Shown here in pieces: positions 6,797-28,180 of a DNA stretch of 29,459 bases. The notes below the pieces were generated by a model that saw only the letters and a list, made by a program, of their open reading frames with translations, was not told where the DNA came from and searched no databases. A program made the translations under genes and the position numbers. The stretch is from a virus: UHGV virus genome UHGV-0320987, one strand, 5' to 3'. The stretch's first letter is position 1, and each line of letters begins with the position of its first letter.

Positions 6797-6888
6797 ATTT
6801 ACATCGCACTCCTCTTGTGCCATAGTAATCGGGCACTGGCAAAATCCAGTGCCGGGATTGGCGTCCCGGATTACTAAAAGGCGCATTC

Positions 6889-6908
6889 ACCGCGCAAGCG
6901 GTTTTTTT
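6889..6908 (+). terminator. Terminator-like hairpin upstream of ant (possible attenuator or 3' end of a small RNA)
   Basis: ACCGC-GCAA-GCGGT (GNRA loop) followed by T6-7; preceded by further hairpins (GCACTGG..CCAGTGC 6833-6852) in a region without a credible ORF. Confidence 0.4.
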
Positions 6909-7065
6909 ATGCGTATAGCACGGCCACATTCGTATTATGGTGGGCTGTGTGGGGGCACCGAAAGGTGCGCCGGGTCCTTTTAGCCGGTTACGCCAACCCT
7001 GCACAGTTCACCACCAACCGATTGGCGTCGGTAGTGGTGATTGACCAGACTAAAAGGTAACCACT

Positions 7066-7761
7066 ATGACAGCTACAAAAAGCACGTCCATTTTTTCTTT
7101 CGAATCCCAAGCCGATATACGAGTAATCGTCATTAATGGTGAGCCATGGTTTATCGCTTCAGATGTTTGTCGGGCTATAGGCATAGCAAACCATCGAGAT
7201 GCTGTTCGAAAACTTGATGATGATGAGAAGGGCGTCGCTTCAACCGACACCCCTGGCGGTGAGCAAGAATCGATCATCATCTCCGAGTCAGGCCTCTACA
7301 CACTGATCCTCCGCTGCCGCGACGCAGTGACACCAGGCACTATCCCCTACCGCTTTCGTAAATGGGTTACAGGTGAGGTTCTTCCTCAGATCCGCCGCAC
7401 CGGAAGTTACATTAAAAACTCGCTCCCGCAGGAAGAACGCATAAAGATGGTTGCCGACCAGGTTGCAAACGCCACAGCATCAGCAGTGATGCAGGCAATG
7501 AAGATAGAGAACAAAACCTACAGCGCCCCACTGAAGCCCGGCTACCGTAGCCTGATTCATTCGCCGTCTGGTGTTCTCGGCCTGACGGAGAACTCACTGC
7601 TGATGAATCTGCTGAACCAGTTACAGGAAGACGGGCATGACGTATCGGGCGCGGCGGCGGAACTGACCACCATGTTCTGCTACATCGTTGGTGTGAGCAA
7701 ATGCCTGCGTGATATCCAGACTCACGCGGAGTACATCAACGACAAAGCAGGATTCTTCTGA
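7066..7761 (+). CDS. Phage antirepressor (Bro-N/KilA-N-like N-terminal domain plus Ant C-terminal domain)
   Basis: N-terminus IRVIVINGEPWFIASDVCRAIGIANHRDAVRKLDDDEKGV is the Bro-N/AntA-type domain; the C-terminal domain is paralogous to the 5661-5918 product; AAAGG about 9 nt upstream of the ATG. Confidence 0.75.
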   Translation: MTATKSTSIFSFESQADIRVIVINGEPWFIASDVCRAIGIANHRDAVRKLDDDEKGVASTDTPGGEQESIIISESGLYTLILRCRDAVTPGTIPYRFRKWVTGEVLPQIRRTGSYIKNSLPQEERIKMVADQVANATASAVMQAMKIENKTYSAPLKPGYRSLIHSPSGVLGLTENSLLMNLLNQLQEDGHDVSGAAAELTTMFCYIVGVSKCLRDIQTHAEYINDKAGFF

Positions 7762-7788: not shown

Positions 7789-7934
7789 AAATAATTCTGT
7801 ACAGATTGCAGACTGTGGGTGAATAGCGTACTATTACCTTACGGGTGATCCATAGCGATTAGGCACCGATACAGGAGGAGCCCACATGAGAAAATTTGAC
7901 GAGTACGAAGGCGTTTAACATTCGGATAGTTCAT

Positions 7935-7949
7935 TTACCCTAATGGTAA
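7935..7949. promoter_or_regulatory. Operator-like palindrome TTACCCTAATGGTAA (copy 4)
   Basis: Perfect TTACC-N5-GGTAA 41 bp upstream of the 211-aa gene start; a degenerate copy TTACCTTACGGGTGA lies at 7834-7848. Confidence 0.55.
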
Positions 7950-7989
7950 ATCCCGCTTAAAGAAGCATCTATATATTATGAGGTGATGT

Positions 7990-8625
7990 ATGCCACAACA
8001 ACTGCTGAATCCAGCAAAGGTAACTGAGGTTTTCGCTCATCTGAACGAAACTCCAGACAACCGCGCCCTGTATTCAGAGTTAGTGAACGGCAACGATGTC
8101 ACATCTGATGTCAAAGGCGTTTCTCTGGCTCCTGGATACCGCGTTGTCCGTGTAGACGATCGTAAGAAAGGCGAGATTCCACAGGCGCACTTTGAACTGT
8201 CATTGATAAATGACCTCACCGAAGAGGTAGTGTATTACAATCGTGTCATTATCCAGCCTGACAGCTATCTTAACTGCCGTCCTGTCACGCAGATATTGGT
8301 ATGGAGAACCCAGAAGCCTAAGCATCGTGCTGTGCTTCATGATTTCGCCGGCATCATCTTCATGAACTACCTCTTGGAACGGTACGATATCATCGTGTCT
8401 GATCGCAACCAGACTCATGAAGGCATGTCGTTCTGGCAGGCTCGCATGTATGACGCACTGGAACTTGGCCTCCACCTCTATGGTTACGACATGATGACAT
8501 GCGAGCTGATAGAGATGAATAACGAGGAAGAGCTTGAGAAAGGTGAAACCTGGTTATGGGGTGATGCGGAAAACTTCCAAAACAGATTGGCCATAATTTC
8601 AAAGCATAAGCTGCCAATAAAATAG
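7990..8625 (+). CDS. Hypothetical cytoplasmic protein (orphan cargo gene)
   Basis: 211 aa, no TM or signal peptide and no motif I recognise; GAGGTGA 5 nt upstream of the ATG; own operator copy upstream and own terminator downstream. Confidence 0.65.
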   Translation: MPQQLLNPAKVTEVFAHLNETPDNRALYSELVNGNDVTSDVKGVSLAPGYRVVRVDDRKKGEIPQAHFELSLINDLTEEVVYYNRVIIQPDSYLNCRPVTQILVWRTQKPKHRAVLHDFAGIIFMNYLLERYDIIVSDRNQTHEGMSFWQARMYDALELGLHLYGYDMMTCELIEMNNEEELEKGETWLWGDAENFQNRLAIISKHKLPIK

Positions 8626-8631
8626 TTCTTT

Positions 8632-8655
8632 AAGCCCGCGGCGCGGGCTTTTTTG
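8632..8655 (+). terminator. Intrinsic terminator after the 211-aa gene
   Basis: AAGCCCG-CGGCG-CGGGCTT hairpin followed by TTTTTT (8649-8654). Confidence 0.75.
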
Positions 8656-8685
8656 TGGACGAAACAAAAGTCAGTGCTACACTCA

Positions 8686-8713
8686 TTGACGCCACATTGA
8701 GGTGGCTTATAGA
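8686..8713 (+). promoter_or_regulatory. Candidate sigma70 promoter for the small secreted peptide gene
   Basis: TTGACG (-35, 8686-8691), 16-bp spacer, TATAGA (-10, 8708-8713); the predicted start site is only a few nt before ATG 8727, implying a very short leader. Confidence 0.4.
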
Positions 8714-8726
8714 TGGAAATGTCACA

Positions 8727-8888
8727 ATGAAAAAAGCATTTGCTGCACTGTTCGTTTTGTTGTCTCTGGTAGCTTCAACTCAGGCCTTTGCCGGTCGTTG
8801 TCAGCACGACAGCGATACTGCCGCTGACGGCTCCCGCTGCGGTGGGCGTTCTGCGGATTCCCGCCCGGGCGGCGGTGGCATTCGTTAA
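8727..8888 (+). CDS. Small secreted Cys/Gly-rich peptide (53-aa precursor)
   Basis: Classic Sec signal peptide MKKAFAALFVLLSLVASTQAFA with AxA cleavage site; about 31-aa mature part with two Cys and a Gly-rich tail; terminator directly after the stop. The ORF-track start at 8655 is a GTG inside the upstream terminator. Confidence 0.45.
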   Translation: MKKAFAALFVLLSLVASTQAFAGRCQHDSDTAADGSRCGGRSADSRPGGGGIR

Positions 8889-8916
8889 AAACAAGGCCGC
8901 GAAAGCGGCCTGTTTG
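8887..8916 (-). terminator. Intrinsic terminator ending the ejection-protein operon (also usable by the plus-strand peptide gene)
   Basis: AGGCCGC-GAAA-GCGGCCT hairpin (8894-8911); the minus strand reads the hairpin followed by TGTTTTTAA. Confidence 0.7.
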
Positions 8917-8917
8917 A

Positions 8918-9769
8918 TCACTGTGCAGTTTTCGCTGATCGATTTTCAGCTCTAAATTCAAGAACCGTTTCAATATTTCTTTCCTTCAGCATATCAATAA
9001 CATTTTTATTCATTTGACTATCACTGGTTAATAACTGGTAAACGTCGCTTCTCTCTTTATCAGAGTTTTCTTTAACAGCTGCTTTGCATGCCAAATGCTT
9101 ATTGAAATTTTCTACATCGCTAGTACAGGAATTTACGGCTGCTGATGAAATATCAGACGCTGAAGAAACACCATCATCCAAACGTTTTATAGCATTTTCT
9201 ATACATGAGTTAAGGGAATAAACGACAACTGAGCGATACCCTTCAGACGCACACCATTCTAAATTTCTTGAAGGATCGAGTGGTTTTACTTCGCTGGATT
9301 GAATTAACTTGTCAAAAACTGACTTATATTCAATCTGTTTTTTATCTATAGCCCATACTTCAGTAGCTGATTTATAATTCCCCGTATGCCTATTAACATC
9401 AAATCCATGTTTTATAAGCAAATCTGCCCATGAAAGATTTATTGATTCATTGTTATGAGGCCATTTTCCTGTCAGAACCGCCCCCATAGACCCCATATAT
9501 CCGCCATATGATGGTATAGCACCATGGCTCAGTAACTTCTCAGCAACCACAGGGCAATTAATTACATAAGAGGCGTAAAGCCCATTCCATAAAGCCCCTC
9601 TATAGTAATCGCCACGATTAGGTTCTTTTAAGTCGATAGCCTTTGATAATTGTTCACACGTTTTGCATGCATCAAAGTTATCCTTATTGCATTGCAATGA
9701 ACTGGCAGCTGTAGGATTTACAGAGACTATTGAAAGCACTATGCCAAAAAACAAATTTATTTTTTTCAT
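8918..9769 (-). CDS. Secreted protein of unknown function appended to the ejection-protein operon (possibly ankyrin-like repeats)
   Basis: 283 aa; signal peptide MKKINLFFGIVLSIVSVNPTAAS; AT-rich relative to neighbours; ATG 2 nt after the upstream stop; segments VAEKLLSHGAIPS and ADLLIKHGFDVNRHT resemble ankyrin-repeat helices (weak, from memory). Confidence 0.65.
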   Translation of the reverse strand: MKKINLFFGIVLSIVSVNPTAASSLQCNKDNFDACKTCEQLSKAIDLKEPNRGDYYRGALWNGLYASYVINCPVVAEKLLSHGAIPSYGGYMGSMGAVLTGKWPHNNESINLSWADLLIKHGFDVNRHTGNYKSATEVWAIDKKQIEYKSVFDKLIQSSEVKPLDPSRNLEWCASEGYRSVVVYSLNSCIENAIKRLDDGVSSASDISSAAVNSCTSDVENFNKHLACKAAVKENSDKERSDVYQLLTSDSQMNKNVIDMLKERNIETVLEFRAENRSAKTAQ

Positions 9770-9770
9770 C

Positions 9771-12700
9771 CTATTTCATCTGCTCTTCAACTTTATTTAG
9801 TAATGGTGATATCGCCCACAGGTTCTGAAAAGGTAGCATTTTACGGACCGCGTGGGTTTGCTGGCTGTCAAATTCTCCGTTAAGTACACCATTCGCAACC
9901 GTCGCGGCATCACCGCCAAGATCAAAGGTAGGACCAAGTAAAGCACCAATAGCATTACGACTCTGAAACCTTGATACCGGAGGCGCACCAAACATCGCGC
10001 CAAGACCAAACCTACCACCGCTTATGTTCTCAACGGTATTCAGCGGCTCAGAGAGCCAGCCAAGCATTCCGCCCCGGTCGATCCCCTCTTTCACAAGGTT
10101 ATTCCAGCTGTAGTCAATATCGCGACCGCTTAACTTCTGTTTCATCATATAGACCATTGAGCCAAGCGCAATCGTGCCAAGCGCACCAAGATAGAATGCA
10201 GCATCGCCCTGCTGGATACCAGATACCAGCACCCTGTTATGCTGTGCGAAGATAAACGTTTTGAACTGCGTGATCATCTTCCAGCCTTCTTTACTAAAAA
10301 ACAGCGGTGTATCACCTACGCCAGGCGTTACAATCACTGAGTCTACATCTTTCAGCACTGCAGACTGGAAAATCTCTCTAGCGAAACGGTCATCCCACAG
10401 ATGACTATGCCCGGTTAACAGCCCGTCCATATCCTCTCCGTGCTTCCCGAATTGCTCCCCGATTCGGCGCAGAACATCTTCATTGATGCCGACCTGTGCC
10501 ATCTTCCGCATTTCACTTTTGGAGAGCGTGCCACCAGCAGAAACTTGGCGAGCCGCGTCAAGTATCCTCGACTGCACTATCATCCCAGACCATGATTTAA
10601 GTGCGCTGTTCCACTGATTCATCAGCGTCCAGTTACCGAATTTCTGCGTCATCCAGTTCAGGCCTCGCTCAGCGGCGCTTCTCCGGCTATATGGGTCAGT
10701 AAGATCCGCTATAGCCTTTGTACGCGTAGACAGGACATAATCAAGCCCAACGGCCATTTCTCGCAAATCCCTGGTTGCAATCTTCACTGAGTCCATATTT
10801 TTAAGCATGCTTACCATTGGTCCGAGAGATTTTCTCAGGCCATGCTGCATCATCGGTCGCATCAGATCAGTTGCAGCGGAGACGGTCATTCCACCAAGCA
10901 AACGGAGGAAGTTAATATTCCTAGCAACTCGCCCGGCACGAACAAAGAAACTGCGTGGATCTTGAGGTGCACCGTAAGTACCAAGCAGTCGATCACGCAT
11001 AGCCGTAATATCCCTAATATCAGCCTCCCGTTGCTTCTCAAGAACTGCACGTCGTTTAGGTGTTTTAGCCTCTTTTATTAGCCGGGTATATTCCTCACTA
11101 ACCTGACGGATTTGCTCCCCCATATCTTTACGGCCAAACTGCGCAGTCAGCTCAATTTCTGGTGCCACCTGCCGGAGATAACTTTCCATGATGTAGTTAA
11201 CATCTGATTCAAGAAAATCTTCTATACGCTCATCAGGAATAAGCAGCGTTCTGCTTTTAGTGAAACCAGCCCGACCAACGAGTCTCTCTGGGATAATATC
11301 GGCTGGTACAAGCCCGGAAGGTGCGCCTATTATTTTATTCACGATCTCGTCAGCAGCGTCCTCTGCTTCCTCTCGGGATAGAGGCTCCATCTGCTTCAGT
11401 GCTCGTTCGCGGCTTGCATTCAGCCTTGTGGTTGAATTTGCCCGTTTTTGCAGTCGGCGAAGCTCAGAACGATATTTCCGTGGATTATCCAACAACTCCA
11501 TATGGCGCTGATAGACAGGAAGCTCACTCTTTGCCTGCGCTATATCATCAAGGCGTGTTTTAAGGTCAGAGCTTTCTTTCATCATTCTTGCCTGAAGTTT
11601 TTCTGATGAAGTCTCGGCCAACTCTTTTTCTATTCTTGTAAGACGCGCCTGTGTGTCAGTCTCCTGAGATATAAGCTTATTTCGTTTATCCAGTTCTTCC
11701 ATGAGTAGAATTTTTTTACCAGACCATTTCTCCGCTTCAGCGATTTCACTAGCGAGAGCATCAGCGCGCGGTGCCGATTCCTCTGCAGTTTTTAGCAATG
11801 AATTTATCCTTTCAATTCGCTGACCTGCTTTGTCAGCACCTTTGGCACTAATCCCTTGTATCCAGTTGGCAATTCGCCCTCTGAATTCAGTGCGGTCGGA
11901 AAGTATCTTATCGAACTTATAAATGCGGGGAAGATAACTTTTCGCCGTCACGACATCGATATCCTTAGGAAGGATCCCCAGTTCCTGCATACGGGCTTTT
12001 GTGGTCTCGAAAATGGGGCGGATTCTGGCGGCTGCTTGTGAAACCTCAGGAATATCACTCTGATCACCACGGCGCATAGCCATGCCAACAGCTTCATTGA
12101 AATCAATAAAGTTCATCCTCTTCACGCCGCGGGCGCTAACAGATTTGCTGTACTGCTGGTAAGCATCACGAGTGGCTTCCATCTGCTTATAAAGCATGGC
12201 GTCGTATTGCTTAATCTTAGTCTCGACTGCCGTAAACGTAGCCAACCCCTCATCATTTTTGGCGAAGAAATAGTTATTTTCGGCAAGCTGCTGGTTAATC
12301 TGACGGGAGACAAGAGATGGTGATTGCGCCAAGCGGCCAGCAGGAGTGACACTCAACGTTTTGTTAGCAAGTCCAAGTCCAGCGAGCTGTTCCTGATCGA
12401 GTGTGGTATTGAAAACCTGAGCTGCACCAATGCTTTGAGGAGAATCCATACCTCGCAAATGATTACCTACTGAGTTAACCACTGCCTCGCGCGCGCCAGG
12501 TCCAGCAAGTAGCTGTGCACCAGCACCAAGGATCCCACCAACGAGAGCATCAACAACAACGTTCGATACGCTCTCCATCGGTGAGCGAGCTTCCTGAGTG
12601 GCCTGTAATGCGGCCTCTGAAGCAACACTGCCAGCAGCATTCGCCAGGGCAAAACGCCCGGCTGTTTCTGCAATACGACCGCCACGAACGACAGCGCCGA

Positions 12701-26704: not shown

Positions 26705-28180
26705 TCATTCAAATGGGTCATAATCCGTTATGGCCCTTCCCTGCTGGCTTTGCTGTCCTGGTATATTTATGCGTTTCGAGACCGGGAAAGCAAACGTCAG
26801 CAGTAGCGCATCGCCTTTACCAGGAGAACGCCCAAGCCGCTCCTTGATATCTTCCTTCGGTTCGATAACGATTTTACCGTCCACTCGAACTTTGTACTCT
26901 GCCGCCGACAGGTCGTCCGCTGTTTCCTGGTCATCAAGCATGCCGCCCAGCCTCAGCCACGTCTTGCATGAGTTGAACATCTCCCCGCGCTTATTGAGCA
27001 TCTGCGGGTCAGTAGACGCGCCACCGAACGGAACAAGTTGCCATGTACGACCCCAGCCGTCACCGATTGACTTCAGACCAGTTCCGTAACCGAAGTCGAT
27101 GAACACTGCGTCAGCCTGGTACTGGTCTTCAAAGTCAGCGATACGCTTCGCCATAATCAGATCGTCAGTGGTCTTGTTGCCAGTCCATAGCACCTTACTG
27201 TGCAGCCCCTGCCGCAGGTATATCACAGCGTCATCAACGCCGGAGTACGCCGGGTCAACGCCGATTATCACCGGAGCATGTGCAACCTGCGCAGCGGTTA
27301 CCACCCGTTTCATTGCCTCGTCAGTAAGACCGGTAGGGATAAACTGCAATTCAGATGCATCAGGGAATATGCCGCGCACACGGATTTTAACGAAGTCGCT
27401 GTCTTCCCCGTAGTCATCAACCCATTTCTGCAACTGCTGTTTGTTAGTGCCTTCCACCGTCCGGCTGTCAATCTGCGCACACTTCCAGCGGTGTTTGTAC
27501 TTGCGGAAACATTCACGGAAACGCCCGGTGTTACGCGTCGGGTTCCCGAACGCCACCCAGATGATTTCGGTGTCTTCGTCCGTCAGCGCACCCTCTGCTA
27601 CCTCCCACACCAGATCGGCAATGTTCGACGCTTCATCGAATACCACGATGATGCGTTTGCGCTCGTTGTGTAGTCCGGCGAATGCCTCAGTGTTGTGCTC
27701 AGACCAGGGTATTGCGTCAGCCCGCCACCGCTTGTCGTGCCCTGGGTCATTGCTGTACATCGCGGTAGCGGTACAGGTAAACCAGTCTTTCGTGATAGCA
27801 AGGTTCGACCACTTGATAATTTCCGGCCAGGTCTTCGTTCGTAGCTGGTTGTCGGTGTTGGCGGTCACCACGACCTTACAATCCTCGCAAGTGGACATGC
27901 CCCAGTTGATCAGCATTGAGATGAATGCGGATTTACCAATACCGTGACCCGAAGCACGTGCCAGCATAAGCGGCTGATAGCGCGTCTCTGGATTCTGCAG
28001 GTGATCACGTATCTCTCGGAACGCATCAGCCTGCCACTGACGTGGGCCGGTAGCATGTGCCAGTTCAGTCCCCTCTTCCCCCCACGGGAACGCATAGAGG
28101 GCATAGCCAAGCGGATCGTGAGTGAACCCTGCAATATCCTCGATCAACTGCTCTTCAGGAGATAACGCTGTATCTGTCAC
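26705..28180 (-). CDS. Terminase large subunit
   Basis: 491 aa; Walker A-like ARASGHGIGKS near the N-terminus, acidic nuclease-type C-terminal half; ATGA overlap with the small subunit gene. Confidence 0.85.
   Translation of the reverse strand: MTDTALSPEEQLIEDIAGFTHDPLGYALYAFPWGEEGTELAHATGPRQWQADAFREIRDHLQNPETRYQPLMLARASGHGIGKSAFISMLINWGMSTCEDCKVVVTANTDNQLRTKTWPEIIKWSNLAITKDWFTCTATAMYSNDPGHDKRWRADAIPWSEHNTEAFAGLHNERKRIIVVFDEASNIADLVWEVAEGALTDEDTEIIWVAFGNPTRNTGRFRECFRKYKHRWKCAQIDSRTVEGTNKQQLQKWVDDYGEDSDFVKIRVRGIFPDASELQFIPTGLTDEAMKRVVTAAQVAHAPVIIGVDPAYSGVDDAVIYLRQGLHSKVLWTGNKTTDDLIMAKRIADFEDQYQADAVFIDFGYGTGLKSIGDGWGRTWQLVPFGGASTDPQMLNKRGEMFNSCKTWLRLGGMLDDQETADDLSAAEYKVRVDGKIVIEPKEDIKERLGRSPGKGDALLLTFAFPVSKRINIPGQQSQQGRAITDYDPFE

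Follow-up and report, generated by a model that had tools for sequence, protein, structure and literature searches.

What kind of element is the 53-codon open reading frame (ORF) that stands alone between two terminators in an Escherichia coli prophage, how is it expressed, and what might its product do? In the window, that is, the whole stretch of 29,459 nucleotides analysed here (UHGV virus genome UHGV-0320987), the ORF occupies positions 8727..8888 of the plus strand, from an ATG at 8727 to a TAA at 8886-8888. Its product, MKKAFAALFVLLSLVASTQAFAGRCQHDSDTAADGSRCGGRSADSRPGGGGIR, divides into a putative signal peptide, MKKAFAALFVLLSLVASTQAFA, and a mature part, GRCQHDSDTAADGSRCGGRSADSRPGGGGIR. 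Our overall account, to which we assign a probability of about 0.6, is that the ORF belongs to an autonomous moron cassette whose exported peptide, the core of an extracytoplasmic module, would bind the envelope of the lysogen and serve as a conversion or exclusion factor.

The window starts in the E. coli chromosome, with yfgI at 62-601, and passes from there into a phiV10/epsilon15-like podovirus prophage whose lysis genes begin at about position 796. Its first 25 kb match phage EC.W1-9 at 97% identity over 80%. E. coli O166:H15 JNE070796 agrees with the window in gene order from yfgI up to and including the ejection genes, and the 286-bp cassette (8630-8915) is 100% identical in that strain. 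The cassette lies in a variable accessory region, with the ejection-protein genes on one side and the tailspike on the other; phage P22 carries sieA and immI at what we take to be the corresponding position. Preceding the cassette is a 211-aa ORF (7990-8625, plus strand; PHROG 1349, function not assigned), whose slot is filled by unrelated genes in relatives, including a YafO-family toxin gene in TL-2011b. On the other side a convergent 283-aa ORF (8918-9769, minus strand; PHROG 6118, no assigned function) marks the end of the ejection-protein operon. Its N-terminus (MKKINLFFGIVLSIVSVNPTAASS) resembles a signal peptide; the ORF gave no Pfam, NCBIfam or PADLOC match and is probably a second, separate moron. 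In a Klebsiella relative, a Rap1a (T6SS-immunity-like) gene and a 134-aa gene occupy its position. Farther upstream in the window, gathering-level Rfam matches to the Hfq-binding RNA isrK (6833-6908, plus strand, 77.9 bits) and to C4 antisense RNA (6933-7018, plus strand, 77.7 bits) directly precede the gene for a Bro-N protein (7066..7761). The arrangement suggests that an epsilon15-like prophage carries an antirepressor module of the P1/P7 type, immI-like and under antisense control. A tRNA-Arg(TCT) gene is located at 25551-25627, between the large structural ORFs 23223..24902 and 26705..28180.

With 40 ORFs of at least 30 aa listed within 3.5 kb, the existence of this ORF proves nothing by itself; conservation does. 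A large protein search returned 57 homologues, hosted by E. coli, Shigella, Klebsiella, Citrobacter, Cronobacter, Franconibacter, Salmonella, Pectobacterium and Dickeya. In their alignment the signal peptide varies, and residues C25-G49 (CQHDxDTAADGSRCGGRSADSRPGG) are near-invariant across Enterobacterales. Codon alignments built from 17 loci of several genera gave a pN of 0.09 and a near-saturated pS of 0.73 for the mature core, a pN/pS ratio of 0.125, and variants at the three codon positions of the plus frame numbered 10/8/55. Constraint on the signal peptide is looser, with a pN of 0.26 against 0.09 in the core. Thus, the ORF is protein-coding and under strong purifying selection, which is strongest on the mature part; conservation of the reading frame in relatives, which an earlier reading made from the sequence only had named as a check, was confirmed.

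All homologues in the codon alignment start with MKK at the same ATG as the ORF in the window. We rejected a 77-aa reading from a GTG at 8655, as in PHROG 3117: the extension is not conserved. The region upstream of the ATG is non-coding-like and diverges between genera, and the Klebsiella copy has an in-frame TAA three codons upstream of the ATG. The sequence-only reading had also assumed that genes of this sort are rarely annotated. This one is called in RefSeq (WP_000708858.1, 'hypothetical protein') and in TL-2011b, where the identical peptide (tblastn 100% over residues 1-53) is gp43 (YP_007001994.1), a 'putative transmembrane anchored protein'. It also matches PHROG 14503, labelled 'membrane associated protein', with E = 2.3e-40 (residues 1-53 on profile positions 1-53 of 53), and the 57 homologues carry the name 'transmembrane anchored protein'. 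The gene is therefore uncharacterised rather than unannotated; a search of the published literature found nothing on it.

The predicted signal peptide (residues 1-22; 8727..8792, plus strand) has distinct n-, h- and c-regions. The n-region, MKK, supplies two lysines; the h-region comprises 14 residues with a mean Kyte-Doolittle hydropathy of 2.49; and the polar c-region ends in A-F-A|G, with A/S/V at -3 and A at -1 conserved in the homologue alignment and Gly at +1 kept in almost all homologues. By sequence rules these n-region, h-region and -3/-1 features are those of a substrate of Sec and signal peptidase I, in agreement with the Sec signal peptide proposed earlier. We infer that Sec exports the pre-peptide and that signal peptidase I cleaves it after A22.

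The best-surviving alternative, though still an unlikely one, holds that the N-terminal segment stays uncleaved and that the product is a bitopic inner-membrane mini-protein displaying its 31-aa tail in the periplasm. The database names and the PHROG 14503 label imply such a membrane anchor, and relatives often tether the same module by a transmembrane (TM) helix. However, the names 'transmembrane anchored' rest on no experiment. The hydrophobic core is no longer than about 14 residues, a polar c-region containing the conserved A/S/V-x-A|G site comes next, and the segment evolves much faster than the mature core, as signal peptides do. With an h-region too short for a typical anchor and with conserved small residues at -3 and -1, the segment looks more like one that signal peptidase I removes than like an anchor. 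A lipoprotein was considered and rejected, as F-A-G-R-C puts the cysteine at +3 and the lipobox L-[AS]-[GA]-C needs it at +1; a few relatives (e.g. AYAA-C) come closer to a lipobox.

Under the cleavage that we favour, the mature peptide would consist of residues 23-53 (8793..8888 with the stop codon, plus strand), with the conserved core C25-G49 at 8799-8873. With a hydropathy of -1.19, this 31-mer is hydrophilic; G, R, D and S are abundant in it. Its size and its two cysteines are as first described: C25 and C38 are invariant, 12 residues apart, and probably joined in a 14-residue disulfide loop in the periplasm. The Gly-rich tail that had been noted is present (GGGIR) but variable, and since many homologues stop at RPGG plus one residue, it appears to be dispensable.

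Searches with the peptide gave no Pfam family at E <=1, no significant NCBIfam family, and nothing at E <=10 in a sequence-profile search of the PDB; the PADLOC anti-phage defence models yielded no family at E <=0.1 for the peptide or for four neighbouring proteins. A match to HxsA3 (NF038309; 12.9 bits, E = 0.073, cut-off 65 bits) lay largely over the signal peptide, and we dismissed it, along with a sub-threshold match to MarB, as signal-peptide noise. The heat-stable enterotoxins STa, STb and EAST1, which have a 4- or 6-Cys pattern, were likewise set aside, the peptide having two cysteines only and no Pfam family at the threshold given above. In an AlphaFold model of the 53-aa protein, the mature part was of low confidence (pLDDT 54-63).

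How is so small a gene transcribed? The sequence-only reading had proposed a near-leaderless transcript from TTGACG (8686-8691) and TATAGA (8708-8713), separated by N16 (8686..8713, plus strand), with a start a few nt before the ATG, which for this pair comes to about 6-8 nt. We instead predict an extended -10 element, TGcTACACT, at 8675..8683 (plus strand), whose hexamer TACACT (8678-8683) lies 43 nt upstream of the ATG. Over 14 loci from about ten genera this element has the form TAnnnT, with T and A invariant at positions 1 and 2 and T at position 6 in at least 90%; its distance to the ATG is 40-49 nt across loci. A weak -35-like hexamer, TGGACG (8656..8661, plus strand), may be assigned 16 nt upstream of the conserved -10; it falls below the threshold of the scan, and its place is taken by TGGATG in Klebsiella, TGGGCG in Buttiauxella and TTGTGC in Enterobacter. 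A consensus promoter scan over 7800-9900 returned no promoter, against 4.7 expected by chance. The -10 sequence GCTACACT (8675-8683) fits KCTAYRCT, the sigma-S type -10 consensus as quoted in PMC5650638, a match that hints at stationary-phase or stress expression. Copies from Pectobacterium read GCTACGCT or TCTACGCT at the predicted -10.

About 6-7 nt past the -10, at the predicted 5' end of the mRNA, the sequence GCCAC-ATTGAG-GTGGC (8691..8706, plus strand) can form a 5-bp hairpin, which appears in both the MFE and the centroid folds. Its position is constant relative to the -10, and a short hairpin is found at the expected start site in every enterobacterial locus but one. In an alignment of 11 related sequences only, from which the structure itself was derived, 94.5% of cells were paired and at three of the five pairs both partners had changed in compensation, once from A-U to G-C and twice from C-G to U-A; the covariation score exceeded that of all 500 shuffles, and slid registers were 22-63% paired. 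Some loci, in Dickeya (L110), in E. coli (L109) and on two plasmids (L106 and L112), have other upstream regions, without the hairpin. We rejected a general role of the hairpin as a terminator or attenuator, a T-run following it in the Cronobacter copy only.

Downstream of the hairpin, a leader segment that is unpaired in the fold (8707..8719, plus strand) contains the box TTATAGAT and then GGAAA, which resembles a Shine-Dalgarno (SD) sequence and stands 8-12 nt upstream of the start codon. At this SD position, GGA, AGG, AAGGA or AGGAGG is present in most of the diverse loci. The box itself reads CTACACA in most relatives and is conserved in that form, immediately 3' of the hairpin, in Klebsiella, Buttiauxella, Franconibacter, Pectobacterium and Rahnella; in the E. 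coli lineage the CA-rich box (8707-8714) has diverged to the sequence seen here. The most economical reading of these features is a leader of about 37 nt that would start near 8689-8691, with a hairpin at its 5' end and an SD-like GGA before the start codon. An mRNA with such a leader would not be leaderless. The 5' hairpin would plausibly act as a stabiliser of the mRNA.

We consider the near-leaderless transcript quite unlikely. Its -35 hexamer matches the consensus at 5/6 positions and its spacer is 16 nt. Moreover, TTGACG and TATAGA are specific to the cassette of the E. coli lineage, in which the CTACACA box of relatives became TTATAGA, so a secondary promoter peculiar to that lineage is possible; only in this role, itself a doubtful one, might the pair be functional. 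On the other hand, TATAGA has no T at -7, on account of which the pair fails the scan, and TTAACG variants of the -35 occur within E. coli. Outside the E. coli lineage the two hexamers are not conserved, other genera having ATGAAG and CTACAC or similar sequences, whereas the upstream TAnnnT is conserved there. The pair would also place the covarying hairpin inside its spacer. A start at about 8720 would cut off the SD-like GGA (8715-8717) with the AUG still not 5'-terminal, and a transcript with neither an SD nor an AUG at its 5' end is a poor arrangement for translation. The hexamers are thus present in the window but find no support as the main promoter of the gene.

The cassette is bounded on both sides. 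The left boundary is an intrinsic terminator of the upstream operon (the Bro-N gene and the 211-aa ORF), detected by the terminator scan at 8632..8656 (plus strand): a hairpin at 8632-8650 with 8 pairs (6 GC) and -13.4 kcal/mol, followed by a T-run. The right boundary is the hairpin AGGCCGC-GAAA-GCGGCCT (8894..8911), which has a 7-bp GC stem and, flanks included, -17.5 kcal/mol. The immediate terminator claimed for the gene therefore stands in so far as a hairpin follows the stop codon by 6 nt; the scan, however, scores it for the minus strand only, because the plus-strand tail, GTTTGATC, is poor in T. A- and U-tracts beside the hairpin are typical of a bidirectional terminator, and we read it as one that would be common to the ORF and the convergent 283-aa gene. 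In most related loci a hairpin also follows the stop codon, though their sequences differ. In phiV10, which lacks the ORF, a 'terminator' is annotated at the same spot and is the sole match of that phage to the cassette.

To follow the cassette across genomes, we clustered the flanks, 600 bp on each side, of 81 loci that encode the identical peptide. The upstream flanks, which end at the left terminator, formed 11 unrelated clusters and the downstream flanks 9, and the sequence from the left terminator onward was conserved. The cassette keeps its identity while its neighbours change. Its mature-coding part has 70% GC, against 48% for the window and 37% for the 283-aa gene. A moron is an autonomous accessory unit of temperate phages, as exemplified by lambda bor/lom and HK97 gp15 (PMC3573123). 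Here we find the cassette's own and a preceding terminator, and presence or absence of the unit in close phages with variable flanks; as for a promoter, there is the conserved -10 TAnnnT and nothing that reaches the threshold of the promoter scan.

The cassette matches 499 of 5426 complete E. coli genomes, and in 422 of these the match spans 80% or more of the cassette; among 50,697 phage records it matches only 12, all of them E. coli or Klebsiella phages and several of them relatives of phiV10 and TL-2011b. Relatives of the gene adjoin MuF_C/LPD polyvalent proteins in prophages of Pectobacterium and Dickeya, follow a RelB/YafQ pair in another E. coli phage, and are also carried by large plasmids. 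A homologue is further present on two ColE1-type mobilizable elements, a 3360-bp Klebsiella Mob plasmid (L112, NZ_CP138754.1) and a 3115-bp Salmonella Mob contig (L106), as the sole annotated cargo, or sole non-mobilization ORF; their upstream regions differ from that of the cassette and contain a TATAGT -10 and a GGGG SD. Standalone relatives are chromosomal in Tolumonas, Methylobacterium and Mesorhizobium, and one, in a genome of about 1.65 Mb, is flanked by bacA and ffh; no conserved partner gene was seen beside these standalone relatives.

The mature peptide also belongs to something larger. A profile search of 1.84 billion cluster representatives (E <=0.001) retrieved 461 that contain the module C-x4-[DQ]-x-A-x-[DN]GSRCG-x-R-[SA][SA]-x2-[RK]PGG, to which the core of our peptide, C-x4-D-x-A-x-DGSRCG-x-RSA-x2-RPGG, corresponds. 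The module occurs in five arrangements: alone after a signal peptide, as in the prophage peptide; between a signal peptide on one side and a TM helix plus a cytoplasmic domain on the other; as the very C-terminal segment of proteins in which a TM helix precedes it; in tandem copies with Pro/Thr linkers between them; and as the core of a longer 4-Cys domain, often after SH3b. It is extracytoplasmic in every case, immediately behind a signal peptide or forming the C-terminal end of the protein. Among 145 module-bearing proteins that we scanned, no Pfam or NCBIfam model covered the module, and the partner domains were SH3_3 (4 proteins), YHYH (2), and PG_binding_1, NucA/NucB and a pilus N-terminal region (1 each). 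A second large protein search with a broad alignment added no informative names.

The extended 4-Cys domain, of about 65 aa, reads IxxSIxxYxGNCPCPYNxAxNGSRCGGRSAYSRPGGxSPLCYxxDVxxxM in P0204, P0149, P0158 and others. AlphaFold modelled one such relative with an overall pLDDT of 84.9 and with 88-96 in 10-residue blocks over the domain, a prediction that places the module within a folded domain. The predicted fold had no structural neighbour in the PDB and the domain no Pfam or NCBIfam model, which makes it a candidate for a new domain family.

What, then, might the free peptide do? The course of events that we propose would begin with transcription of the autonomous moron, comprising promoter, structured leader, 53-codon gene and terminator, from the extended, possibly sigma-S-friendly -10 with its weak -35, near 8689-8691. 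The SD-like GGA of the roughly 37-nt leader would then serve translation, with the 5-bp hairpin at the 5' end as a plausible stabiliser. Sec export and the cut after AFA(22) by signal peptidase I would release the hydrophilic peptide of about 31 aa into the periplasm, where a C25-C38 disulfide would close its 14-residue loop. The free module core would next bind a common envelope component of the lysogen, the weakest step of the series, and the peptide would contribute to lysogenic conversion or to exclusion instead of being a secreted toxin or signal. Elsewhere a membrane tether keeps the module at the outer face of the inner membrane, or the module is joined to an SH3b, PG-binding or YHYH domain, which makes binding to an envelope component the most likely activity of the peptide; the hints from partner domains are thin, in that of 145 proteins 4 have SH3b and 1 has PG_binding_1. 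The position in the accessory region, the occurrence as sole cargo of mini-plasmids and the tethered or cell-wall-associated relatives are all compatible with a conversion or exclusion factor and do not prove one. In the broad sense, 'periplasmic effector', one of the functions first suggested, seems to be the most plausible.

A bacteriocin, an enterotoxin or a signalling peptide acting outside the producing cell, the other functions suggested at first, seems very improbable. The product is indeed a small, Cys-containing peptide with an export signal, encoded on mobile elements and the only annotated cargo on Mob plasmids of about 3 kb. Yet its export signal is of the Sec type and not a double-glycine leader, there is no evident route across the outer membrane, and Pfam gave no match to any toxin or bacteriocin family. 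Nor does an immunity, export or maturation gene travel with it: no immunity, ABC-exporter or lysis gene was linked to it in more than 10 contexts, and the neighbours are unrelated between loci. The same module is, moreover, a domain of ordinary envelope proteins and is encoded by chromosomal genes in small genomes. A class II microcin was rejected on the same grounds, the Sec-type signal and the lack of linked immunity and ABC-export genes. Finally, the idea that the ORF is spurious and that a non-coding RNA or an opposite-strand gene is what is conserved, suggested by the overlapping minus-strand ORFs 8722..8973 and 8775..8921 and by an antisense gene call in one relative, is effectively refuted by the codon-alignment statistics (pN/pS at saturated pS and third-position bias in the plus frame), next to which stand a protein motif recurring in many architectures among the 461 cluster representatives and an Rfam scan of the cassette that found nothing significant.

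As a kind of element, then, the cassette is a standard moron with a small, envelope-directed protein, and its family had already been catalogued without a function. What is new is, first, that the mature part can be recognised, by its sequence, as the bare core of a widespread, unnamed extracytoplasmic module and, second, that a cassette with a conserved predicted -10 and a covarying leader hairpin takes the place of the near-leaderless promoter. About one in eleven complete E. coli genomes matches the cassette, whose gene is among the smallest self-sufficient cargo genes common to phages and mini-plasmids. Being the sole annotated cargo on Mob plasmids of about 3 kb is compatible either with a benefit of its own or with a selfish effect. 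The mature part opens a way into an unnamed envelope module whose occurrence extends across Proteobacteria and further, and finding the target of this 31-residue peptide, an experimentally tractable task, would annotate hundreds of protein clusters. If it proves to be one more moron for exclusion or fitness, that finding would be useful but unsurprising. As a tentative conjecture, not a likely one, the roughly 25-residue C...DGSRCGxRSAxxRPGG might be the core of an undescribed domain that recognises the cell wall or a periplasmic protein domain, captured by enteric mobile elements as a free ligand or decoy that alters the envelope of the lysogen (e.g. in superinfection exclusion or stress signalling), under a possibly sigma-S-type promoter and a structured leader.

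Among known systems, PHROG 14503, with its 'transmembrane anchored protein', is the same family, matched over its full length and with nothing different in sequence; its name asserts a membrane anchor, without a function, and the sequence features do not favour an anchor. Excalibur (PF05901, DxDxDGxxCE) shares with the peptide a superficial likeness, a Cys-bounded acidic loop ending in DG-x-x-C. Its cysteines, however, are spaced by about 30 residues as against 12 in the peptide, which has Ala at the middle ligand position and whose relatives often carry Gln in place of the first Asp; Excalibur was rejected, giving no Pfam match at E <=1 for the peptide and none among the 145 relatives. Compared with the extended 4-Cys form, the prophage peptide has two of the four cysteines and lacks the flanking helices that give that form its confident predicted fold; compared with the fused or TM-tethered forms, it would be the free core of the module.

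The cassette resembles morons in lying between two terminators in a variable accessory region, in a base composition unlike that of its neighbours, in its envelope-directed product and in being present or absent among close relatives, phiV10 having the terminator only. It differs from the classical morons in that its ORF is much smaller and encodes neither a lipobox nor a membrane-spanning mature part, and in that the gene, known here from sequence, extends beyond phages to small plasmids and chromosomes. Among small envelope regulators, finally, MgrB, on the scale of 50 aa, keeps its TM helix and has a periplasmic pair of cysteines. The prophage product is alike in its length of about 50 aa and in a predicted periplasmic part with two essential-looking cysteines; it shows no sequence similarity to MgrB and, unlike MgrB, would not keep a TM helix. 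By this analogy, MgrB is a possible model of how so tiny a product could act, by binding a periplasmic domain.
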